From Promethearchaeota archaeon (GTDB lineage: Archaea; Asgardarchaeota; Lokiarchaeia; Sigyniarchaeales; SOKP01): a DNA stretch of 64,000 bases. The notes beneath the pieces were generated by a model. The model was not told the DNA's origin. It ran no database searches and saw only the letters and a list, made by a program, of their open reading frames with translations. The translations under genes and the position numbers were made by a program. The stretch is from assembly GCA_016926735.1 (NCBI GenBank), contig JAFGOA010000223.1, forward strand, positions 31,276 to 95,275. Direction: 5' to 3'. This document shows positions 1,958 to 58,748 of this stretch, piece after piece (within the stretch, counting starts at the first letter, position 1; each line of letters starts with the position of its first letter).

Positions 1958-2055
1958 TTTTTGAAAGTTTAAGATTTTTTTTTAGGTATTTTATTCTAAT
2001 TTGATATAATTTAAAGAGGGAAAAATAGGACCCGGAGCGGGAATTGAACCCGCGT

Positions 2056-2084
2056 TTCCTCAGCATAAGAATAATCTTAAACTT
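2056..2084 (-). other. tRNA-His intron 2 (29 nt, variable loop), BHB type
   Basis: 4-bp helix CCTT/GAGG (one T.G). 3-nt bulges AGA and AAA. 9-position inner helix AGTTTAAGA/TCTTATGCT with one T.T mismatch and loop TTAT. Excision leaves a 4-nt variable loop AGAC. Confidence 0.7.
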
Positions 2085-2114
2085 CTAAGGATTCACAGTC
2101 CCCAATACTAACCA

Positions 2115-2144
2115 TTATACAAATTACAGTAGAACTGGAATTTT
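2115..2144 (-). other. tRNA-His intron 1 (30 nt, D-loop, between nt 15 and 16), BHB type
   Basis: 4-bp helix GTAT/GTAT (2 A-U plus 2 G.U). 3-nt bulges AGA and AAT. Inner hairpin AAATT-C-CAG/CTG-T-AATTT. Excision gives the canonical D-loop AGTGGTTA. Confidence 0.75.
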
Positions 2145-2488
2145 CTATACAATCCGGGTCATAAATAACAATAATATTATCTAATTTATATTTCTAAAAA
2201 AATTTTAGCTTTTAATAAGCAATTTGATCAATGATATTATGATTTTTGTTTTAAAATAATTTAAAAAGATATAAATAAGAATTTTAGAGATTTTAGAATG
2301 TATTTAAGCTCTTGAAAAAATTAAAATTAAGGATAAGAAGTCTGGAAGATTTATTTCATTCTAAATACTAAACAATATGTTTTTAAGTTAATTATTTTAA
2401 ATATTATTAAGTCAAACTAATAAATTTTTAATTTTTATTCTGATTTAATCCTAATTAGAATATAGAAGATCTTGGAAATTTGATTGAT

Positions 2489-2948: not shown

Positions 2949-3707
2949 ATGTCAGATAATTTAAATAAAAAAATAATGTTAATCGAGACATATTTTAAAG
3001 ATTTTTCCACTTTTATTGAATTAAAAAATTTTAGAGATTTCCTATTATTCACTCTTAACAGTCAAGCATCAGCGAATATACTTGCTCAATTAGGAATAGG
3101 TGGTTCTAAGGATATAATCAATATTCCATATAATCCTATTTCTGAAATTTATTATCAAAAAATCAGTTTGATTTCATCAGGCTCTCTAATCTTATATATA
3201 AAAAGCAAATCGTTATTTGATGAATTTGTTATTAAAAAAGAAAATCCCCAATTTAAAGAATACTTAAGTTCAAATGAGATGGAATTGGCATTCAGAGGAA
3301 AAGAGAAATTTTTAATTCCTAAAGTATGTGATTGCTCTAATTTAGAAAAAGAAAATGAATCACTTATACTAAAAATTGATGACCTCTACTACGATCTAGA
3401 AAGTTTTATGGCAGTTGTAGAACCTAACATTTTATTTGTATTAGATTCTAAAAAACAATCTGATCCTGATTTACTTTTCGCTTTTAATTTAATGCCAGAA
3501 ATGCCCGGAAGATCCGATAAAAATATTCTTAAAATAGATGTATATCTTGATCCTGAACATAAAACTAAAGATATAAACTATATTAAAAAAAAAGAAGATT
3601 TTAATCTTATTTTCTTAAAGAATATCAAAGATATAAGTCATTCAGATATTTTTAAATCAGCATTTTCATTAGTTCTGCATATTAAATCATTTGATCGTCC
3701 CTATTAA
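2949..3707 (+). CDS. hypothetical protein
   Basis: 252-aa ORF, non-repetitive, no recognisable motif. Confidence 0.45.
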   Translation: MSDNLNKKIMLIETYFKDFSTFIELKNFRDFLLFTLNSQASANILAQLGIGGSKDIINIPYNPISEIYYQKISLISSGSLILYIKSKSLFDEFVIKKENPQFKEYLSSNEMELAFRGKEKFLIPKVCDCSNLEKENESLILKIDDLYYDLESFMAVVEPNILFVLDSKKQSDPDLLFAFNLMPEMPGRSDKNILKIDVYLDPEHKTKDINYIKKKEDFNLIFLKNIKDISHSDIFKSAFSLVLHIKSFDRPY

Positions 3708-3927
3708 CTATAAATTTCTCTTACTTTCTTTTTTATAATATTTAATTAAAATAATTATTATTCTTAGAAAAAATAGAGTTATTAATTATTAAATTCTCTT
3801 TTTAAATCTACTTATTCGTCTAACATCAATGGATTAACAAATCAAAGGATTAATATCTTTGATTTAAATATAATCCGACAAAATATAATAAATATAAAGT
3901 GAATTAATTTCCTAATTGAGAGTAAGA

Positions 3928-4140
3928 ATGCAAATAATAACGATAAATTTACCTGAGAAATATTTGGAAGCCATCCAAATATTAAATGATTATAAAATCT
4001 ATCCTTCAAGAAGTGAAGCTATTAGAATTGCTTTAGAAAGATTCTTAACAAATGAACTTAAAATGGATAAGGAACTTGAAGAAGATAATTTTAAAATGCT
4101 TACAAAAGGCAGAATTAATAAAAAAAAAATAAAAAGATAA
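3928..4140 (+). CDS. ribbon-helix-helix (CopG/Arc-like) DNA-binding protein
   Basis: MQIITINLPEKYLEAIQIL...SRSEAIRIALERFL is a typical RHH beta-alpha-alpha pattern. ATG at 3928 is in the frame of ORF 3916..4140. Confidence 0.6.
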   Translation: MQIITINLPEKYLEAIQILNDYKIYPSRSEAIRIALERFLTNELKMDKELEEDNFKMLTKGRINKKKIKR

Positions 4141-5417: not shown

Positions 5418-6695
5418 TTAAGAAATACTAACCGATTCTAATAAAAATTGTTTATACGAAGTTTGGAACATGTCCCTTATTCGCACAGGCTGAAACCAGT
5501 AGCCTCTATCGGATAGATCTTGAATAAAACCATCTCCGACTACTTTTCTGAGAATATTTAACGCTCCATTTACATCAGCATTAAGAATGTAATTCGAGCC
5601 TTTAAATATTCCCCGTTTTATCCTTTTACCAACATAATGTTGATGTTTCTGTATTGGTTCTAAATCTAATGAACTACATTTTGACGTGTAGGATTCATTG
5701 ACATCATGAACTTTAATTCCTACAAGGCGAGCTTTATAAGTTATCATTTGTTTAAGCTTTTGAATGGGGATATTCAAAAAATTTTGGTTATTTCGTTTGC
5801 CCATTCGAATATTTTGTTTTATATTATCTAATTTACCCAAACAAATGTGTCCTATCTGTTTTTCCAAACAATAACCGACAATGAATTGAGCTGTTTTATG
5901 CAAATAATCCTTTACAATTGAGTTTCTCCTTATTGTAATCTTATCGAGTCTATCAGTCCACTTTAGTTCTTGTTTATCCTTAATAGAAAAAAATCTTGCT
6001 TTCTGTTTATTCCATTGCCGATTAATTGATTTTAGAATTCTCCCTGAAATAATAATTGGTTTAGTATTCATATTCTCTGCTGTAGTGATTAAATTATTCA
6101 ATCCAAAATCGATTGATAAATATCTCGTGGTATCTAATTTTGACGTTTCTATTTCTTTTTTATATATTATTTCAATTTCATAAAATCCTTTTCGTGGCAA
6201 AATCCTTATCTGTTGATACTCTCCAAAACGCTTGTTTTTATACGTAGGAATTTTAATTTCAATAGGGTTTTCAAACTCAGGAAATAGTTCTTTAAAAAGG
6301 TGAGACATTGTAAGAACGATTTTATCCTGTTTAATCTTGCTATTCTGGTTAGTAAATATCAAAATGTTGTTACAACCTTTCTTGTATTTAGGTGGTCTCG
6401 GTCTTCCATTGAATCTTTTCCTATCTTTTTTCCACTCCTTTATAGCATTGAAGAAACTTTTCCAGTTTTTATCCAAGACTTTAAGAATTTGTTGAGAGGT
6501 TTGAGCTTTTAACAATTTATATTGGCTATATTTTTTCATTATGAAATCTAAATCGTTATATCGAAGCCAATTCTCTAGATGAAAGAAATCCTGTCGAATA
6601 TACCAATTAGCTTGATTATAAAGCTTCTTAGAAATTGAACAGAGCACATCTAAATGCTCAGTTCTCAGAGTCCTGAATTTATATACTAATTTCAT
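5418..6695 (-). CDS. tnpB: TnpB / OrfB_IS605-family protein (RNA-guided nuclease family), no tnpA partner
   Basis: 425 aa. RuvC-I-like SIDFGLNN. C-terminal YTSK...NADVNGALNILRK is typical of TnpB. The expected RuvC-II Glu and the CxxC..CxxC zinc finger are not evident (see findings). Confidence 0.8.
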   Translation of the reverse strand: MKLVYKFRTLRTEHLDVLCSISKKLYNQANWYIRQDFFHLENWLRYNDLDFIMKKYSQYKLLKAQTSQQILKVLDKNWKSFFNAIKEWKKDRKRFNGRPRPPKYKKGCNNILIFTNQNSKIKQDKIVLTMSHLFKELFPEFENPIEIKIPTYKNKRFGEYQQIRILPRKGFYEIEIIYKKEIETSKLDTTRYLSIDFGLNNLITTAENMNTKPIIISGRILKSINRQWNKQKARFFSIKDKQELKWTDRLDKITIRRNSIVKDYLHKTAQFIVGYCLEKQIGHICLGKLDNIKQNIRMGKRNNQNFLNIPIQKLKQMITYKARLVGIKVHDVNESYTSKCSSLDLEPIQKHQHYVGKRIKRGIFKGSNYILNADVNGALNILRKVVGDGFIQDLSDRGYWFQPVRIRDMFQTSYKQFLLESVSIS

Positions 6696-9430: not shown

Positions 9431-10579
9431 TTATTTTAATTCTTCAAATTTCTTTCCTTTAAGTTGCTTATGCCAATAATGTGGTTTTGGTTTTTTAATA
9501 TTCCATTTTAAACATATTTCATTAACAATCCTTGGATATACATTATATATTTCACATATTTTTTTAATTGGCATTTTCCAAACTAATTTTATCAGTTCAT
9601 CCTTTTGAATGGAGTCTTCAAAAATATTTTTAGATGCAACTCTAAAATATTTCCTCTTTCGCGATAAACTATCTGGAAAATTATCTAACATTTCATTAAA
9701 TAGTTTTCCGCCCAAACTAAAATAATAATTCCCTTTACCATCGGGATTGATTTTATGAGGAATATTAAATCTTTTTTTTATTTCTTCTAAAATTAATTTA
9801 CTACCAATATGAAATTGATTAGTCCCTTCTTTTCCATCACCATCAAAAAAACCTAGTAAAAATGCCAGATCTAATTCTCTATTATCTAAATTAGGAAATC
9901 TTGTTCTTTTTTTACTACTTTTTACATAACCTAATGTGTATAGATCACTTTGAACATTAGAATTTTTAAAAGTAATCCTTACATATGTTCTTAGTTCATT
10001 TTTAGTCATTTTTGTTCGATATTTCTTGTATTTAGGATTTAAACCTATCGCTTTACAATACCTATCTATTAAAATTTCATCATTTTTGCTTAATTCAAGT
10101 TTTAATTCTCCTCTTTCTCCTAAATAAACTTCAGCCCACAATATTCCAAGCCAATAAGCTTTATTTTTTGAATTAATTTTTTTAAAGTAATTTATATTTA
10201 AATCAAGATGATAGTTTAAAACTTTTAGACCTTTTTTTCTAGATATTGGTAATTCTTCATTTGATTCTTGGTATTTCTTAATAAATTTTAATGTATTCTT
10301 CCCACGTAAGCCAAAATAAGCTTTAATATTATTACTCCATTCGTTTAATTCATCTAAAGCAATTTTAAATTGAGGATTCACTTTAATATTTCTTATAATT
10401 CTTTTTATACGTCTTTCATAATCACATAATATAAGACTTAATTTTTTATAAGATAAACTTCCATTATGAATTATTTTAACTTTAAAACCATTAATAAATA
10501 AGGTGGATGATACAATCTTAAAAATCTCGTTTCTTAAATCTTTTATTAATTCTGATGCAGAATAAGTAAGTCTTCTCAT
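9431..10579 (-). CDS. LAGLIDADG-family homing endonuclease-like protein with C-terminal HTH
   Basis: Two LAGLIDADG-type motifs (KAYWLGILWAEVYLG and LAFLLGFFDGDGKEG). The C-terminus PIKKICEIYNVYPRIVNEICLKW is HTH-like. Confidence 0.75.
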   Translation of the reverse strand: MRRLTYSASELIKDLRNEIFKIVSSTLFINGFKVKIIHNGSLSYKKLSLILCDYERRIKRIIRNIKVNPQFKIALDELNEWSNNIKAYFGLRGKNTLKFIKKYQESNEELPISRKKGLKVLNYHLDLNINYFKKINSKNKAYWLGILWAEVYLGERGELKLELSKNDEILIDRYCKAIGLNPKYKKYRTKMTKNELRTYVRITFKNSNVQSDLYTLGYVKSSKKRTRFPNLDNRELDLAFLLGFFDGDGKEGTNQFHIGSKLILEEIKKRFNIPHKINPDGKGNYYFSLGGKLFNEMLDNFPDSLSRKRKYFRVASKNIFEDSIQKDELIKLVWKMPIKKICEIYNVYPRIVNEICLKWNIKKPKPHYWHKQLKGKKFEELK

Positions 10580-10763: not shown

Positions 10764-11608
10764 TTAAAGTCCTTTTGGACCGTTTTCATATATGCTATAT
10801 GCTTCATCAATAGACTTATTCTCATGAACTATAGCTCTTACTGCTTTAATCATGCCAATAGGGCTGTCACTTTGGAATATATTTCTTCCCATATTTGCGC
10901 CTATAATTATAAAAAATAGTTATAGTCTACGCCGACAGCTCCTTTATCAATAGCATTCCTTGCCATAATTAAAGCATCACGCTCCTCAATCTTCTTTCCA
11001 CCAGCTATTACAACCGGTACTGGAGCGATAGAAGTGACTTCGTCGAAGTTCTCACAATAATATGTTTTTACAAAAGTGGCACCTATTTCTGCTGCCATTC
11101 TACTTGCCATACCCAAATATCTTGCATCTCTAACCATTTCCCGTCCAACTGCTGTTACTGCTAAGACTGGAATACCATAATCTTGTCCCCAATTTACAAT
11201 CTTAGTTAAATTCATTAAAGATTGTTTTTCAAATTCACCACCTACAAAGATGGAACAGGTAATTGCTGAAACATTTAATCTTATCGCATCTTCAATTGTA
11301 ACATTTATTTCTTCATTTGAAAGTTCTTTTAACATACTTGCTCCGGCAGATACTCTTAGAACGATAGGTACATCAAAATCCGGTGAAACACAATTTCGAA
11401 GCATACCTCGTGTTAACATTAAAGCATCAGCATATTCAAAAAGGGGTTCTAACTTCTTAAAAGATTTTAACATTCCTGGGATATTGCCAAAATATTCATG
11501 AGTATGTATTAATTATACATATTTTCCATGATCGACAGCAAGCATGACGCAATGCCCAGATTTAGGTTTAATTATTCGGGATAATCTATTTTGCATTCCC
11601 CAATCCAT
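10764..11608 (-). CDS. class I aldolase of the DhnA family (fructose-bisphosphate aldolase / ADH synthase type), split into three exons by two BHB mini-introns
   Basis: Exons are 11608..11525, 11494..10927 and 10894..10764. The joined product is 260 aa. It has MLAVDHG-YFGNIPG, the Schiff-base Lys context ATFVKTYY, and GAVGVDMGRNIFQ. Unspliced, it contains an in-frame TAA and a frameshift. Confidence 0.8.
10895..10926 (-). other. aldolase intron 2 (32 nt), BHB type
   Basis: Helix GCGT(10932-10929)/GCGC(10900-10897). Bulges AGA and AAA. Inner helix CTATAA/TTATAG. Excision corrects the frame and gives GAVG-VDM-GRN spacing. Confidence 0.7.
11495..11524 (-). other. aldolase intron 1 (30 nt), BHB type
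   Basis: Helix CATG(11530-11527)/CATG(11500-11497). Bulges GAA and AAT. 9-position inner helix with one A.C mismatch and loop AATTA. Excision removes the in-frame TAA and gives AVDHG|YFGNIPG. Confidence 0.7.
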
Positions 11609-31119: not shown

Positions 31120-33123
31120 ATGAGTAAAAATAAATACGAATTTAAAGCAGAAATTAAAAAACTATTAGATATCTTGAGTAAATCCCTTTATCAACATAAA
31201 GAAGTTTTCCTCAGAGAATTGATTAGTAATTCTGTAGATGCACTTAAAAAAATTCATTTTTTATCATTAACAGATAAAAATATAGAAGATATTGAAGATA
31301 ATCTTAAAATTGAAATTATCATTGATTCTGATTCTAAAACAATTACTGTTAAAGATACAGGAATTGGAATGAATAAAGAGGAGCTTATTAATAATTTAGG
31401 AACTATTGCTGGAAGTGGTTCTCAAAAGTTTCTAGAACAACTTAATAATACCCAAAAAATAGATAATAAAAATGTGGATTTAGATGTTATAGGTCAATTT
31501 GGTGTTGGGTTTTATTCGATTTTCATGGTTGCTGATAAAGTTAAAGTAATTTCGAAATCATATATTAAAGAAGAGAACGCTTATGAATGGGAATCAGATG
31601 GAACTGGAGAATTTATTGTAAATAATAATGATAAATCTACAAGAGGAACAGATGTAATATTATTTCTTAAAGAAGATGAGAAAGAATACCTTGATAAATT
31701 TAGGATTGAATCAATAATAAAAAAATATTCTAATTATGTCTCTTTTCCAATTTACGTTTCTGAAATAAAAAAAGAAGCAGAAGAGGAAAAAGAGAAAAAA
31801 GTTGAGGAAGTGGAAGATAAAAAAAAACCTGAACCTATTAATGAATTAACTCCTTTATGGAAAAAAAATTCAAAAGATATTACTGAAGAGGAATATAAAA
31901 GCTTTTACCATTTTATTTCCAATAGATATGATAATTATTCACATGTTATTAATTATAGTATAGATGGCACTGTTCAATTTCGTTCTATACTTTTCATACC
32001 TGAATCTGATATCAATCAATTTATAAGACCTGATGATGAATATGGCTTAACTCTTTATTCTAAAAATGTAATGATTATGAAAAATTGCAGTGATTTAATT
32101 CCAAAATGGATGAGATTTATAAAAGGAGTTGTTGATTCAAATGATATTCCATTAAATATCAGTAGAGATACCATTCAAACTAATCGGGTAATGATGAAGA
32201 TAGAAAAATTACTAATTAAAAAAATATTAAGAGAACTTGATAATATCGCTGAAAATGAACCAGAGAAATATAAGAAATTATGGGAAAGTTTTTCTCCATA
32301 TATAAAAGAGGGTATTCTTTCTGACGCTTTTAGAACAGATAAACTTCTTACTTATCTTCGCTTTAATAGCTCAAAATCAAAAGAGGGCGAATATAGAAGT
32401 ATTGAAGATTATATAAAAGATATGCCTGAAACTCAAAAAGAACTATATTATTTAATTGGCGAAAATCTAAATACTTTGAAGTTATCACCTCATTTAGGAT
32501 ATTATAATGAAAATAATATGGAAGTTATATTATTAGATGAACCTATTGATAATTTCTTAATGATGAATGTACGTGAATATAAAAAAACAATACTGGAAGG
32601 TGAAAATGAAGAAATTAAATCATACACCTTTACTCCCATAGATGTAACAGAACCTACTAAGGAAGATAAAGAAGCATCAGAGGATGAGGGTAAAAAAGAT
32701 AAAACTGAAGAACTTATTCCTGAGAATATAAAGAAATTCTTTGAATATGTAAAATCTACTCTTGGAGAAAAGATTCTTGAGGTTAAACTGTCTGATCGTC
32801 TCTATCAAAATGTATGTAGATTGGCAAATCCTGCTGGTGGTATGACTTCAAGTATGCAAAGAGCTATGAGATATTGGACAAAAACAGAATATGGAAAAGA
32901 TTTTGAAATTCCGAGGAAAATTTTAGAGTTTAATAAGGATCATCCTATTTTTAATAAATTAATTGAACTTTATGAAAATGATCCAAAAGATGATAAAGTC
33001 ACATTAATTATAACTCAACTTTTTGAAAATTGCCTTTTAGCTGAAGGTGATCTACCAAATCCATCTCTTATGGTTCCAAGAATAAATCAATTAATTGAGT
33101 TATTATTAGTTGAAAAAAAATAG
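31120..33123 (+). CDS. htpG: Hsp90-family chaperone HtpG
   Basis: GHKL ATPase motifs (FLRELISNSVDALKK, DTGIGM, GQFGVGFYS), middle-domain NISRD, 667 aa. Confidence 0.9.
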   Translation: MSKNKYEFKAEIKKLLDILSKSLYQHKEVFLRELISNSVDALKKIHFLSLTDKNIEDIEDNLKIEIIIDSDSKTITVKDTGIGMNKEELINNLGTIAGSGSQKFLEQLNNTQKIDNKNVDLDVIGQFGVGFYSIFMVADKVKVISKSYIKEENAYEWESDGTGEFIVNNNDKSTRGTDVILFLKEDEKEYLDKFRIESIIKKYSNYVSFPIYVSEIKKEAEEEKEKKVEEVEDKKKPEPINELTPLWKKNSKDITEEEYKSFYHFISNRYDNYSHVINYSIDGTVQFRSILFIPESDINQFIRPDDEYGLTLYSKNVMIMKNCSDLIPKWMRFIKGVVDSNDIPLNISRDTIQTNRVMMKIEKLLIKKILRELDNIAENEPEKYKKLWESFSPYIKEGILSDAFRTDKLLTYLRFNSSKSKEGEYRSIEDYIKDMPETQKELYYLIGENLNTLKLSPHLGYYNENNMEVILLDEPIDNFLMMNVREYKKTILEGENEEIKSYTFTPIDVTEPTKEDKEASEDEGKKDKTEELIPENIKKFFEYVKSTLGEKILEVKLSDRLYQNVCRLANPAGGMTSSMQRAMRYWTKTEYGKDFEIPRKILEFNKDHPIFNKLIELYENDPKDDKVTLIITQLFENCLLAEGDLPNPSLMVPRINQLIELLLVEKK

Positions 33124-36178: not shown

Positions 36179-36712
36179 ATGGAAAAAAAAATCAGCAAAA
36201 CCTTAATAATGGGATTAAGAAATAGTGGTAAATCATCCATCTTGGAATATTTTCAAGGGATACGTAACCTAGTTTTATTCGGAAATATAAAACCAACAGT
36301 CCATATCGACAGAGTAATTTATCAAGCAGTTGATTATGAACATCTTATTTGGGATTTTGGAGGTCAAATCGATTATTTAAGTGATTACTTAGAACAATTC
36401 TATGAATATGCTTATGAAGCAGATGAGATAATATATGTGATTGATATTCAAGATCAAGAGAAATATAATCCTTCTATCAATTTTTTAAAAAAAATTATTA
36501 AACTTTTAGTTGATAAAGAACTATATATAGATATTAAAGTGTTTTTGCATAAATTTGACCCGGATTTGGATCATACACATCCAGAGATAAATGAAGAAGT
36601 AATTATTAATCTTCTAAAAGATGTTAAAAATATTTTTTCTGATAATATTAGCTACAGTATTTTTAAAACATCTCTTTATGTTGATTTTAAAAAATATCAA
36701 ATAATAGGATGA
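36179..36712 (+). CDS. small GTPase, Rag/Gtr-like (Ras superfamily), single G domain
   Basis: G1 GLRNSGKSS, G3 WDFGGQ, G4 HKFD (the HKxD variant typical of Rag/Gtr), G5 FKTSLY (compare the FRTSIW context of Rag). Confidence 0.7.
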   Translation: MEKKISKTLIMGLRNSGKSSILEYFQGIRNLVLFGNIKPTVHIDRVIYQAVDYEHLIWDFGGQIDYLSDYLEQFYEYAYEADEIIYVIDIQDQEKYNPSINFLKKIIKLLVDKELYIDIKVFLHKFDPDLDHTHPEINEEVIINLLKDVKNIFSDNISYSIFKTSLYVDFKKYQIIG

Positions 36713-40448: not shown

Positions 40449-42410
40449 ATGGAAAAAAAAGAAAACAAAGATATACGGAGTTTTGTTGTTGTCTGTCGAT
40501 GTGGTATTAACATTTCAGAAATAATCGATTGTCCTTCCCTAGTTGAATTCTCTAAAAAATTACCTACTGTTGTTGATGCTGATGAATATATTAGTATTTG
40601 TACTGAACCAGGTGCAGAATTTATAAAAAAAAAAATGACAGAAGCTAATGCCAATAGATTGATTGTTGTTGCTTGTACCCCTAAAACTCATGAACCTGTG
40701 TTTAAAACTGTTCTTGAGTCGATGAATTTAGATCCTTCTTATCTTGAATTTGCAAATATAAGAGAACATAGTAGTTTTGTTCATAGAAATGATATTGAAG
40801 GTGCTCAAAAAGTAGCTAAAGATATAGTTAAATCTGCTGTTGCAAGAGCATCCTTGTTAGAACCTATTAAAATAAAAGAAGTAGATATCACCAAAGAAGT
40901 TTTAATACTTGGTGGAGGTGTTTCAGGGTTAACTTGTGCAATAGATCTAGCTGAAGAAGGGTATATAGTACATCTAGTTGAAAAATCTCCTACAATTGGA
41001 GGTAAGATGGCTCAATTAGATAGAACGTTTCCAACTGATGATTGTTCAATCTGAATTTTAGGACCAGTAATGTTACAAGCAGCGAGAACCAAAGGACTAA
41101 ATATATACACATATAGTGAATTAGAGAACGCTAATGGATTTGTCGGGAATTTTGATGTAAAAATCAGAAAAAGAGCAAGATTTGTAACAAATGATTGTAA
41201 TGGATGTGGTGCTTGTGAACCTGTTTGCCCTGCAATTAGTTCAAATGAATTTAATGAAGGATTAAATCCAAGATCAGCAATTTATACAGCATTTGCTCAA
41301 GCAGTACCCTCTATCGCACAAATTGATATGACAAAATGTATAAAATGTGGTCTATGTCAAAAAGCATGTGAACTAAATGCTATAGATTTTGATCAAAAAG
41401 ATGAAATTCAAGAGATAAAAGTAGGAGCAATTGTCGTAGCTACTGGTTGGGATGAATATATACCTCCTATTGGAATGTTAGGATTTAATATATATCCTAA
41501 TGTTATTACTCAAATGAAATTAGAGAGAATTCTTGCCCCAAATGGTCCTACAATCGGACATTTAGCAAGACCTTCTGATGGAAAAACACCAAAAAAAATC
41601 TTATTCATTCAGTGTGTTGGTTCACGAGATTTAAATAAAAATACTTATTGTAGCTCAGGAGTATGTTGTATGATTTCAATAAAAAATACAAAGCTTATTA
41701 AACAACATTATCCTGATTGCGAAATAACCGTAGCATATATGGATATTCGTGCAGCAGGAAAAGATTATGAAGAGTATTTTACAGCATCTAGAAAGGAAGG
41801 GATAAGATATATCAGAACTAATATTAGTAAGATAGAAGAAAATCTTGAAAATCACAATTTAATCATTAAAATGCAAAATACTCTCAGAGATTCTAAGAAA
41901 TTTCAGGAAAATGAATTTGAAATGGTTGTACTTTCTTGTGCTATGACTCCCCCTAGAGGAATAAAAAAAATACAAACCTTACTAAAATTAGAGACAAGCA
42001 GAGATGGCTTTTTCAAAGAATTTCATGCAAGATTGAATCCAATTGATACAAAAATACCTGGAATTATTCTTGCAGGGGTTAGTCAAGGTCCTAAATCTAT
42101 AGCTGAATCGATATCTCAAGGAAGAGCCGCAGCCTCATCCGCAGCTCGATTAATGAGTAAGGATAAATTTAGAATTGCTCTAATTAGAGCAAAAGTAGAT
42201 AAAGAAAAATGTGCTAAATGCGGTTTATGTGAATTTAATTGCCCTTATAATGCTATTACTTTGAAAGATGATGGCGCAGATGTTGATGAAATTTTATGTA
42301 GAGGATGTGGTTCATGTTTAGCTAATTGTCCATCAGAAGCAATAAGTTTAAGATATTATAAAGAGAATCAGTATGAAAAACAAATAGATGCGATTCTTGA
42401 GAATACATAG
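40449..42410 (+). CDS. hdrA: heterodisulfide reductase subunit A (HdrA) selenoprotein; in-frame TGA = Sec
   Basis: Track ORFs 40449..41054 and 41070..42410 are in one frame, separated only by TGA 41052-41054. That TGA sits at FPTDDCSI-U-ILGP, where HdrA homologs have Cys or Sec. FAD motif GGGVSG and four ferredoxin-type Cys clusters. 653 codons. Confidence 0.85.
41052..41054 (+). other. UGA selenocysteine codon in hdrA
   Basis: Aligns with the conserved Cys of the DCSxC motif. Confidence 0.75.
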
Positions 42411-42418
42411 AGAGGTTG

Positions 42419-42895
42419 ATGATTATTACAAAATCAGATTTAAAAATTATTAGCTTTATGTGTTGGAAATGAGGATATGGTGCTGGAGATATGGCAGGAA
42501 CAATTCGTGCTCAATATCCCGCTACAATCAGACCTATTCGAATTAATTGTACTGGAAGAGTCACTCCAAGTTTAATGATGCGTACATTAGGAAAAGGTGC
42601 TGATGGAATTATAGTAGCTGGATGATATCCTGGAGAATGTGATTTTGAAACAGGTAATCTTGTTGCTGAAAAAAATGTTCAATATGTAAGAGAAATTTTG
42701 AAAACAATTGGACTCTCCGAAGAACGAGTACACATGTTTAATTGTAGTGCAGCAGAAGGACAGAGATTTCAAGAGGAGATTACTAGAATTTCTGAAATAA
42801 TTGAGACACTTGGCAACAACCCTTTTAAAGAATCTAATACATTAAAAAAAGTATCTGATTCTAAAGAAGGAAAAAAAATAAACCGAATTGAATGA
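42419..42895 (+). CDS. vhuD: MvhD/VhuD-like hydrogenase delta subunit with two in-frame TGA (Sec) codons
   Basis: Reads FMCWK-U-GYGAGDMAG...RINCTGRV...GADGIIVAG-U-YPGECDF..GN...NCSAAEG. Both TGAs (42470, 42623) fall on conserved Cys positions of MvhD. Starts 9 nt after the hdrA stop, with GAGAGG upstream. Confidence 0.8.
42470..42472 (+). other. UGA selenocysteine codon 1 in vhuD
   Basis: Occupies the position of the second Cys of the CxxC-type N-terminal motif. Confidence 0.7.
42623..42625 (+). other. UGA selenocysteine codon 2 in vhuD
   Basis: Occupies the Cys position in the G-C-x-P-G-x-C motif. Confidence 0.7.
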
Positions 42896-43088
42896 TTTTT
42901 ATGAAGAAAATTTGGTCATAAAATGACAACCTTGTGATGGTTTATTCGGTATTTTCAATTTATAACCTAATTTTTAACTAAAAAAATTATTTAGATAATT
43001 TATTATCAACTCAAATTAGAATAAAAGAAAAATTTAATTTAAATGAAGAAAAATAAAAAATAATCTAATAAGAATAATTCAAACTATT

Positions 43089-44544: not shown

Positions 44545-46113
44545 ATGAGATTAATAGTAAAAAAAATAAATTTTGAAACTGGTAATATGAAAGACGTTGT
44601 GCTTAACCATAATGATGCTGAAAAAATAGGACAAAAAGTTGGAGAACGTGTTATTATTCAAAATATAAATACTAAAAACTTAAGTGAAAAATATTGGGTT
44701 GCTATATTAAAAATTTCATATTCAGATTCTATAGTAGCTCCAGGAGAAATAGGAATTTTTGCTGACACATTTAAAGATATAAAAAATTTAAAAGAAAATT
44801 CCAAAGTCTCAGTTTTAGCTGCTGAAGCACCTACATCATATAAAAATATCCAAAAAAAAATTAAAGGTTTTAAACTTAATTCTGATGAAATTCATAGTAT
44901 TATAAAGGATGCAGTATCTGGGAAATTGTCACAAATAGAAATTGCATCATTTATTACTGGTATTTCTATTAATAATATGGATTCTGATGAAATGACAGCA
45001 TTAACATTAGCAGAAGGTAACAGTGGAAGAAAATTTGATTTTGGTCCGGAAGTCTATGACAAACATAGTACATAAAATTGCACTCTGTAATTTTAGCTAA
45101 AAGGTGGAGTTCCGGGTAATAAAGTAACACTTATAATCGTTCCAATAATTGCAGCTGCAGGATTAATTATTCCGAAAACAAGTACTCGTGCTATAACATC
45201 TCCTTCAGGTACAGCCGATTCAATGGAGGTTCTAGCGCCAATCTCTTTTAATTCAGAAGAAGTAAAAGAATTTATCTCAAAAAGAGGAGCATGTATTATT
45301 TGGGGAGGTGCTTTAGATATAGCACCTGCAGATAATGTTTTTATAGAAGTTGAACGTCCACTTCATTTTGATCCTATGGGTTTAATGATACCTTCAATTT
45401 TAGCTAAAAAACTTAGTATGGGTGTAAAAAACCTAGTATTAGATGTACCTATTGGTAAAGGAACAAAATTTCCTACACTTAAAGATGGACAAAATTTTGC
45501 TCTCATATTCAATCAAATTGCCAAAAATATTGGTATTCATAGTGAGTGTGCTTTAACCTTAGCTCATCAACCTGTGGGTCACTGTGTTGGACCGGCAATT
45601 GAAGCTCAAGAAGCAATTTCTCTTCTGAGGGACTATAAAGTAGGACCTAATTCTTTAATAGAAAAATCAACTTCATTAGCAGGTATTCTTTTAGAGATGG
45701 CAGGAAAAGCTAAAAATGGAGAAGGACAATTATTAGCTAAAGATATCTTAAAATCAGGGAAAGCTTATACAAAAATGAAAGAAATTATTGAAATGCAAGG
45801 TGGTAATCCTAATATTTTGCCAGAAGATATAGAATTAGGTCCATATAAACTTGATATCTATGCTCAAAAATCAGGTCATATCACTCAAGTGGATAATGCT
45901 TTAATTAATCAAATTGCAAAAGCAGCAGGCTGCCCCTATTCTAAAACTTCAGGAGTTAGAATTTATAAAAAACAAGGTGCTAAAATAAATAAAGGTGATA
46001 TTATTTTTACAATCTATTCTAATACTGAAAATAAGTTAAAAAGAGCTGAAAAATTATACAATAGTTCTGGAGGGCCTATTATATTAGGAGGAATGCTCAT
46101 AGAACGTATTTAA
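44545..46113 (+). CDS. AMP phosphorylase (archaeal DeoA-type, thymidine phosphorylase family) interrupted by one 30-nt BHB intron
   Basis: Exons 44545..45071 and 45102..46113 give 512 aa. The spliced product has [49 protein letters not shown]. The N-terminal extension is typical of AMP phosphorylase. Confidence 0.85.
45072..45101 (+). other. AMP phosphorylase intron (30 nt), BHB type
   Basis: Helix TAGT/GCTA, bulges ACA and AAA, inner 7-bp helix TAAAATT/AATTTTA. The insert carries three in-frame stop codons. Confidence 0.75.
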
Positions 46114-58019: not shown

Positions 58020-58040
58020 AATTTTTAATTTAATTATTGA

Positions 58041-58748
58041 TTAAAGGTTCAATTCTTTAACGATTTCTTCTATTCCCTCATTATTTTTAGCGCTTGTTAG
58101 AATCACTTTAATATTTGGATTTATCTCTTTAGCATCATTGACCATTTTATCTAGATCTGTTCCTAATCTTTCTTTCAGATCGATTTTATTTATGATTGCT
58201 ATCTCTGACATTCTAAATAATAACGGATGTTTTTCTATAACCCATTCACCTTCAGTAGTGGAAACTATAATAATTCGTTTATCCATTCCCAATTGAAATT
58301 CAGCTGGGCAAATTAGATTTCCTACATTTTCTATAAAAATAAGATTGTATTTTTTTAGGTCGATATTTTTCACAATCTTAAGAATATAATATGCATTTAG
58401 AGCACATTCTCTTCCTGTATTTATTTGAATAGTGTCAACATTTTTTTTTTGAATACGATCAGCATCCACTCGAGTTGTTATATCTCCACATATAACCAAA
58501 ATTTTATATTTCTGAGAAAGTATATCTGTTATTTTTTCTAAAATTGCTGTTTTTCCAGCACCGATTGCTCCAACAATATCAAATGATTTTATATTGTGTT
58601 CATGAAGCTTATTATTGATTAATTCCGCAATAGAATCATTATTTTTTTCCACTTCTTTTTGTGTTTGAATGATAATTTGACGATTGTGTTCTTGTGCTAA
58701 TTTTCTACTTTCTAATTCCATGACTCTTTCGTATTCTTGATCTTTCAT
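58041..58748 (-). CDS. hypB: hydrogenase nickel-incorporation GTPase HypB
   Basis: GAIGAGKT, ENVGNLICPA, NKIDL. Confidence 0.9.
   Translation of the reverse strand: MKDQEYERVMELESRKLAQEHNRQIIIQTQKEVEKNNDSIAELINNKLHEHNIKSFDIVGAIGAGKTAILEKITDILSQKYKILVICGDITTRVDADRIQKKNVDTIQINTGRECALNAYYILKIVKNIDLKKYNLIFIENVGNLICPAEFQLGMDKRIIIVSTTEGEWVIEKHPLLFRMSEIAIINKIDLKERLGTDLDKMVNDAKEINPNIKVILTSAKNNEGIEEIVKELNL

Follow-up and report, generated by a model that had tools for sequence, protein, structure and literature searches.

How can an aldolase be made as one protein when its gene carries an in-frame stop codon inside the presumed active-site segment? The question is raised by a 64,000-nt stretch of DNA from a Promethearchaeota archaeon (GTDB lineage Archaea; Asgardarchaeota; Lokiarchaeia; Sigyniarchaeales; SOKP01), positions 31,276 to 95,275 of the forward strand of contig JAFGOA010000223.1 (GenBank assembly GCA_016926735.1). 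We call this stretch the window; its G+C content is about 26%. The aldolase gene occupies 11608..10764 of the minus strand and begins with the ATG at 11608. Exon 1 (11525..11608, 28 codons) ends in AVDHG; from there the strand reads KYV-stop-LIHTHE, and the same frame resumes past an insert of 30 nt (11495..11524) that contains the in-frame TAA. A second insert of 32 nt (10895..10926) brings in a frameshift and further stops. From the sequence we consider it highly probable that the first insert is a pre-mRNA intron of the bulge-helix-bulge (BHB) type, which would be cut by the endonuclease EndA and whose exons would be joined by the ligase RtcB.

The interrupted aldolase gene and its first insert

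Downstream of the first insert, exon 2 (10927..11494, minus strand) runs from YFGNIPG to GAVGV plus the G of an Asp codon, and exon 3 (10764..10894, minus strand) carries MGRNIFQSD and continues to the stop codon TAA. The output of the gene callers holds this gene as fragments of 31, 188 and 42 aa, and open reading frames (ORFs) are present at 11513..11608 (31 aa) and at 10907..11473 (188 aa, with an ATG start). When both inserts were removed in silico by the same cutting rule, a single ORF of 783 nt encoding 260 aa was obtained. The spliced product scored 387.2 bits over residues 1-255 against NCBIfam NF006081 (cutoff 297), the family of 3-hydroxy-5-phosphonooxypentane-2,4-dione thiolase, LsrF. 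It also matched the Pfam DeoC/LacD aldolase family PF01791 (1.5e-18) and the structure of E. coli LsrF (PDB 3gkf, 3e-87), the latter without a gap at either junction. At the first junction LsrF and the spliced product read MLAFDHGYF and MLAVDHGYF, respectively, with the Asp of DHG presumably being the catalytic residue; at the second, GVD joined to MGRNIFQ likewise aligned without a gap. Only for the spliced product was the family cutoff passed and were the DHG and GRNIFQ segments contiguous. Judged by its sequence, the host gene is an LsrF-type member of the DhnA/DeoC aldolase family. A preliminary description of the locus had called it a DhnA-type aldolase, which holds at the level of the family; LsrF-type is the more precise assignment.

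The BHB is an established topology of archaeal pre-tRNAs, in which cleavage occurs after the second base of each bulge. The elements of the first insert stand in the order of that topology: exon-side helix strand, bulge, inner hairpin, intron-side helix strand and bulge. On the minus strand these are CATG (11527..11530), the bulge GAA (11524..11526), a hairpin at 11501..11523, CATG (11497..11500) and the bulge AAT (11494..11496). Two 3-nt bulges are thus placed on opposite strands with a 4-bp helix between them, the arrangement by which a BHB is recognized. The inner hairpin consists of AATATGTAT (11523-15), the loop AATTA (11514-10) and ATACATACT (11509-01), and is strong, with 8 of 9 positions paired and one A.C mismatch. 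On the outside, GAT (11531..11533) pairs weakly with ATT (11493-11491) through G.U, A-U and U-A pairs. The strict hBHBh' form has flanking helices on both sides; with an outer helix of just 3 bp, one of them G.U, the element fits a relaxed motif.

Cuts by the canonical rule are predicted between 11525 and 11524 and between 11495 and 11494. They would remove the 30 nt from 11524 to 11495 and bring GAT CAT GGA next to TAT TTT GGC, that is, GATCATGGA next to TATTTTGG. Homology allows two equivalent registers of excision because of a repeated A. The predicted exon-exon junction is the 30-mer GCTGTCGATCATGGATATTTTGGCAATATC, and a circularized intron would carry the junction of ACTCATGAA with AAATATGTA. 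On re-reading the letters we found the preliminary description correct in the start of the gene, in the interrupted reading and in every position that it gave for the helices, bulges, loop and A.C mismatch. Its excision of 11495..11524, said to give CAT GGA TAT TTT GGC and a contiguous DHG-YFG, was confirmed as well, with a gapless alignment to LsrF.

Orthologs without the insert and alleles that carry it

More than 100 uninterrupted orthologs share 85-88% identity with the spliced protein over 98-100% of its length, and those that are named come from Promethearchaeota/Lokiarchaeota metagenome-assembled genomes (MAGs). The DNA at the junction was compared in ten uninterrupted orthologous loci of reference genomes, nine from Asgard archaea and one from Methanomassiliicoccales. 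At the site of the insert these loci read GAT/C CAT/C GGA/G TAT TTT/C GG, and in seven of them the letters are exactly those of the spliced junction as predicted, GATCATGGATATTTTGG. The in-silico ligated product of intron 1 is therefore the same as intronless orthologs at the junction, at the level of both DNA and protein. Comparison with such orthologs had been proposed in the preliminary description, and it came out in favor of the reading given there.

A scan of species-representative genomes revealed a relative, L011 (JAGXOA010000101.1), whose spliced aldolase is 92.7% identical to that of the window. Its gene (L011:3001-3875) is 875 nt long where about 777 nt would be expected, and contains inserts of 30 nt at the site of intron 1, 32 nt at the site of intron 2 and a new one of 36 nt after VIAGG. 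The 36-nt insert (about 3612-3647; also seen in L098-L100) has a BHB in exact register, with the helix AGGT/GCCT and the bulges AAT and AAA. We also searched metagenome contigs by pattern for both exon flanks lying 15-45 nt apart. Five more aldolase loci were found, representing three distinct alleles (L082, identical to L088; L085; and L086, identical to L087). In all three, a 30-nt insert with an in-frame TAA (two in L085) occupies the site of intron 1, and intron 2 is absent from them. Copies of the L086 and L011 types (L092-L100, from further samples) are present in independent NCBI, JGI, ENA and Logan assemblies, the L086 type in at least six samples, and a Logan contig of run SRR13394437 contains the same locus as the window.

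The pairing of intron 1 was compared over the five distinct alleles, namely those of the window, L011, L082, L085 and L086. Standard pairs are formed in 96% of the pairing cells, compared with 22-55% when the 3' partners are slid. The central helix is fully paired in all five, its T-A pair being T.G in two of them, and the GAT strand of the outer helix is invariant. Elsewhere T-A is replaced by C-G, G-C by G.U or A-U, and the A.C mismatch of the window by G.U or A-U. Changes on both sides of a pair were found at two pairs of intron 1, in the inner helix, and at two pairs of intron 2. Between the window and L082 the introns differ at 7 of 30 positions as read from the alignment, fewer than the divergence at synonymous sites predicts for the same span. 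Within this small sample, it is structure rather than sequence that appears to be conserved among the homologous copies of intron 1.

Exon 1, the piece of the gene cut off by the stop codon, was examined for selection among the intron-bearing alleles. Over 27 codons, dN was 0 to 0.075 and dS 0.2 to 2.1, giving a dN/dS of 0 to 0.16. This strength of selection matches the rest of the gene; for the whole gene, dN/dS is about 0.03-0.08 at saturated dS. With the register, the intronless orthologs and the conserved insert and pairing in five alleles, the reading of the insert as a BHB intron, made in the preliminary description, is supported.

The distribution of the introns over the alleles is uneven. 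By protein identity the aldolase alleles group as ((window, L011), L086) and (L082, L085). Intron 1 occurs in all five alleles, intron 2 in the window and L011 only, and the 36-nt intron only in the L011 type, which suggests that the last was gained recently. The protein of an intronless locus (P0027/L089) is 98% identical to that of L085. Over the 2.6 kb downstream of a point that lies about 120 nt 3' of the intron site, the DNA of L085 and L089 differs by just 4 mismatches; on the other side of that point, as far as the 5' end of the L085 contig, the divergence is about 10%. This mosaic reflects either recombination or co-conversion of an intron-bearing segment, or a chimera of strains made in assembly. 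From these sequences, the gain, loss and exchange of such mini-introns appear to happen within short spans of evolutionary time.

Inserts of the same class and other broken genes

In intron 2 of the aldolase gene, GCGT (10932-29) pairs with GCGC (10900-897), the bulges are AGA (10928-26) and AAA (10896-94), and the inner helix is CTATAA/TTATAG. The minimum free energy (MFE) fold of this insert is exactly the BHB structure, and the predicted junction is GGCGTAG followed by ATATGGGAAG. One pair of its central helix is C-G in the window and U-A in L011, the change on the exon side being synonymous (GGC to GGT). The two ends in L011, GTGT and ACAC, are complementary and not repeated. The change from C-G to U-A shows that complementarity has been kept, and not a direct repeat or a target-site duplication.

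A 30-nt BHB intron is also predicted in the AMP phosphorylase gene of the window (gene 44545..46113, plus strand; intron 45072..45101), with the helix TAGT/GCTA, the bulges ACA and AAA and an inner helix of 10 bp. The spliced product scored 578.6 bits on TIGR03327 (cutoff 535), and its junction, DKHS joined to TGGVPGNK, aligned without a gap to the enzyme of T. kodakarensis (PDB 4ga5); the predicted junction DNA is AACATAGTAC next to AGGTGGAGTT. In two further alleles of this gene (L101 and L103) the only differences lie in the intron loop or in the replacement of G.U by A-U. In GenBank the two halves are entered as separate 'hypothetical proteins' (MBN1217093.1 and MBN1217094.1).

The window further contains a tRNA-His(GTG) gene (2028..2159, minus strand) with two BHB introns at non-canonical positions, one of 30 nt in the D-arm region (2144..2115) and one of 29 nt in the variable region (2084..2056). 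ARAGORN detects this tRNA only after both segments are removed, and then as a canonical 73-nt tRNA; before removal there is a partial Rfam tRNA match with a 30-nt insert. The bulges, AGA/AAT and AGA/AAA, are purine-rich like those of intron 1. By sequence, the mRNA inserts thus fall, in size and shape, into one class with bona fide tRNA introns from their own genome. When about 50 more ORFs of the window were scanned against Pfam, no other split domain came to light.

How often such a structure arises by chance matters in DNA of this composition. Loose BHB-like matches number about 3,600-4,000 per strand of the window. A scan of the whole window for BHBs, combined with a test for bridging of ORFs, gave 53 candidates (16 strict) against 47-57 (12-17) in frame-shifted controls and was discarded: structure and open frames do not discriminate in AT-rich DNA, so homology is needed. 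A candidate at 58046..58023 that would join a HypB-like ORF to a hexapeptide ORF was likewise rejected, each ORF being a complete domain of its own. Thermodynamic z-scores were uninformative for the inserts (-0.6 to -1.6). With the position and the length fixed, as homology fixes them here, a BHB of the quality of intron 1 is found at 4.5e-4 of window sites, and at 1.5e-4 when the inner helix must have at least 8 pairs. An in-register BHB recurs in intron 2, in the insert of AMP phosphorylase and in the three inserts of L011, making six inserts in all.

Two other broken genes of the window were considered as intron cases and rejected. The HdrA-like gene (40449..42410, plus strand) is divided into two ORFs by an in-frame TGA (41052..41054) in the motif TDDCSI-TGA-ILGP. 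Its homologs presumably have Cys at this position, and the codon most likely specifies selenocysteine (Sec). The VhuD/MvhD-like (FlpD) gene (c. 42419..42895, plus strand) has TGA codons at two Cys positions, 42470..42472 and 42623..42625, in the contexts FMCWK-U-GYGAGD and IIVAG-U-YPGECDF, and is probably a selenoprotein with two Sec residues. An AUGA...UGAU pattern 3' of this gene (about 42900-42960) could be a SECIS element.

Several other genes of the region may be recorded here. Directly downstream of the aldolase gene, a 382-aa ORF (9431..10579, minus strand) contains the LAGLIDADG-like motifs WLGILWAEVYLGE and LLGFFDGDGKEG; its Pfam LAGLIDADG_3 match is below threshold (E = 0.011), and it may be a free-standing gene of the homing-endonuclease kind. 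A TnpB-like gene (5418..6695, minus strand) with OrfB_IS605 and Cas12f1-like TNB domains belongs to an element of the IS200/IS605 family. The small GTPase at 36179..36712 (plus strand), of the Gtr1/RagA-Arf type (Pfam 6e-18), is eukaryote-like and fits an Asgard origin of the DNA. In the L011-type genome the aldolase gene is adjoined by a gene for Thg1, the tRNA-His guanylyltransferase (L098:992-1750; also in L099 and L100). It has a single in-frame TAG (YFIWR-stop-KDWERNS), the same in three assemblies, at a position where we take homologs to have Gln. This TAG may reflect recoding or a pseudogene.

Predicted splicing, its alternatives and its relation to known systems

Transcription would run through the insert of the aldolase gene. 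In the RNA, the CAUG of the exon (11530-27) would pair with CAUG at the intron's 3' end. Stacking of the 9-position hairpin on this helix would present the bulges GAA and AAU on opposite strands 4 bp apart. An EndA of the (alpha-beta)2 broad-specificity type found in Asgard archaea would then cut after the second base of each bulge, and RtcB would join the exons and probably circularize the intron. The product, GAU CAU GGA joined to UAU UUU GG, would encode a contiguous DHG-YFG active-site segment in an enzyme of 260 aa. We infer that the aldolase transcript is a substrate of EndA and RtcB and that translation uses its spliced form. The intron itself is most likely a neutral or selfish passenger. 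The relaxed BHB motif requires an EndA of the (alpha-beta)2 or epsilon2 type, and Asgard archaea encode an (alpha-beta)2 EndA with an L1 loop and broad specificity for relaxed BHBs (PMC5829648).

Several observations weigh against this reading. Splicing of the aldolase transcript is a prediction from DNA and protein sequence. The outer helix of intron 1 is just 3 bp long with a G.U pair included, the thermodynamic stability of the fold is unexceptional (z = -1.2), and in the MFE structure the CAUG helix is longer by one pair on each side, leaving no clean 3-nt bulges. Covariation in intron 1 is not significant with five sequences, the observed score being reached by 68 of 500 shuffles. In an exact look-up in a collection of 15 billion proteins, the in-silico spliced proteins were absent; the queries were the aldolases of the five alleles, with two alternative starts each, and AMP phosphorylase. 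A Pfam scan of about 50 ORFs revealed no EndA or RtcB domain in the window, so their presence in the genome rests on the literature on the clade. Finally, a ribosome on the unspliced RNA would read 31 codons and halt at the TAA, so the transcript would somehow have to escape coupled translation.

If the RNA is not spliced, the gene may be expressed in pieces, as a 31-aa peptide ending at the TAA and a truncated enzyme re-initiated at Met 11473, without the Asp of the DHG segment and cut short again at the second insert. The two ORFs exist and are reported by gene callers, and at the RNA level there is room for such an arrangement. Nevertheless, the purifying selection on exon 1 equals that on the rest of the gene in five intron-bearing lineages, which is not expected of a 31-aa leftover. 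The truncated product would also be without the DHG segment, to which YFG is directly joined in LsrF, and, because of intron 2, without the C-terminal GRNIFQ segment; a BHB kept in exact register would be left unaccounted for. We regard expression in pieces as very unlikely; a functional truncated enzyme starting at Met 11473, which the preliminary description had held up as the outcome that would speak against splicing, is contradicted by the exon 1 dN/dS of 0 to 0.16. A pseudogene, inactivated by small insertions whose likeness to BHBs is coincidental, seems still harder to credit. It would agree with two disruptions in one gene, a stop and a frameshift, and with the abundance of BHB-like shapes in AT-rich DNA. 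Yet the gene has no further lesions, its dN/dS is that of a constrained protein (about 0.03-0.08 at saturated dS), the insert keeps its length of 30 nt in lineages whose dS exceeds 1, and a probability of about 4.5e-4 per insert for an exact register would have to be met at six inserts.

Translation may instead pass the insert, by read-through, by a hop over the 30 nt resembling the bypass of phage T4 gene 60, or by reassignment of TAA. Insert 1 is in frame and starts directly after a GGA codon with a hairpin next to it, as in gene 60. However, a matching landing codon is lacking (downstream of GGA the sequence is ...CAT GAA TAT), L085 has two in-frame TAA codons, and intron 2 and the insert of AMP phosphorylase shift the frame. 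Read-through would also place 10 aa without counterpart in any homolog into the DHG-YFG segment, the aldolase gene itself uses TAA as its normal stop, and the codon apparently recoded in the window is TGA, as Sec in the HdrA-like and VhuD-like genes. Recoding is, to us, the least credible account of the locus. Selenocysteine at the stop of intron 1 was rejected since the codon is TAA and not TGA and the 10-codon stretch has no counterpart in homologs, and a self-splicing group I or group II intron was rejected since the insert has 30 nt against a core of hundreds of nt, with no Rfam intron match in the window. An artefact of assembly or sequencing, or a MITE-like mobile insertion at the level of DNA without relation to RNA processing, could be suspected with metagenome assemblies as the source and with CATG at both ends, which might be taken for a short direct repeat. 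Identical inserts in independent NCBI, JGI, ENA and Logan assemblies argue otherwise, as do the complementary, unrepeated ends of intron 2 (GTGT/ACAC in L011). Moreover, a search of the window that tolerated up to 3 mismatches gave no second copy of the intron 1 sequence, and a single-copy sequence is not a dispersed repeat. We hold an artefact or a mobile insertion to be about as improbable as a pseudogene. The four alternatives taken together remain improbable, and what doubt is left concerns explanations that we have not considered.

The predicted BHB intron of the aldolase gene has few precedents in mRNA. Watanabe reportedly described the BHB intron of cbf5 pre-mRNA in 2002, and the splicing of cbf5 is reportedly linked, in 2006 work by Yoshinari among others, to hetero-oligomeric EndA. 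The established case of pre-mRNA BHB splicing is cbf5 of Crenarchaeota, in hosts with a hetero-oligomeric EndA, and introns in other archaeal genes have been predicted but not confirmed (Yokobori 2009, PMC2738675). A study of 2020 still names cbf5 besides its own case in a 5' untranslated region (5'-UTR), HVO_1309 of Haloferax volcanii (PMC7714728). In Atabeyarchaeia and Freyarchaeia, 92-95% of tRNA genes are interrupted, and protein-coding introns are unmentioned (PMC11291895). Within the literature searched, cbf5 of Crenarchaeota is the only archaeal coding region with an established BHB intron, and we came upon no BHB introns described from protein-coding genes of Asgard archaea; coverage was incomplete and a prior description is possible.

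Like the intron of cbf5, that of the aldolase gene is a short BHB intron in a coding region, to be removed by the tRNA-splicing endonuclease and patchy among relatives. The host gene of the former encodes an RNA-modification enzyme of Crenarchaeota, whereas here it is a metabolic LsrF-type aldolase of Lokiarchaeia (Asgard), with two to three introns in a gene and another interrupted gene 34 kb away; splicing of the aldolase transcript is predicted from sequence, in contrast to the experimental demonstration for cbf5. What would be new relative to cbf5 is the Asgard lineage, the ordinary metabolic host genes, the multiple introns within one gene and an apparent turnover.

The aldolase introns share their architecture and size class with archaeal tRNA introns of the BHB type (in Thermoproteales, and in Atabeyarchaeia/Freyarchaeia). 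In the window, the tRNA-His introns of 29 and 30 nt with bulges AGA, AAT and AAA are close to the aldolase intron with GAA and AAT, and presumably the same enzymes act on both. Unlike tRNA, the aldolase substrate is an mRNA without a tRNA body to aid recognition, and the exon part of its motif is constrained by codons, the central helix making use of the His-Gly codons CAU GG. In HVO_1309, too, the substrate of EndA is an mRNA, both in vivo and in vitro (PMC7714728). That intron differs in lying in an untranslated leader, where no reading frame is interrupted. In eukaryotes, HAC1/XBP1 splicing proceeds by IRE1 cleavage and joining by a tRNA ligase or RtcB. It resembles the predicted aldolase splicing in being a protein-only, spliceosome-independent removal of a short coding-region intron, in which a tRNA ligase joins the exons and the frame or product changes. 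It differs in that IRE1 rather than EndA/TSEN cuts, at twin stem-loops and under stress regulation, whereas the aldolase has no known regulation.

The fragmented annotation of the interrupted genes means that metabolic reconstructions from Asgard MAGs may under-count intact genes. The aldolase alleles would offer a natural system for the study of intron gain and loss. The window has 3 introns in 2 of roughly 55 protein genes, and if this rate holds, a genome would contain on the order of a hundred. That EndA-type mini-introns of 29-36 nt, common to tRNA and protein genes, form a whole population in Lokiarchaeal genomes is a tentative proposal, which we find plausible while stopping short of calling it probable. 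The finding bears on eukaryotic origins, in that interruption of mRNA and protein-only splicing by EndA/TSEN and RtcB may be present in the archaeal lineage nearest to eukaryotes. If the proposal is true, protein-only splicing of mRNA would belong to everyday gene expression in the archaea most closely related to eukaryotes.

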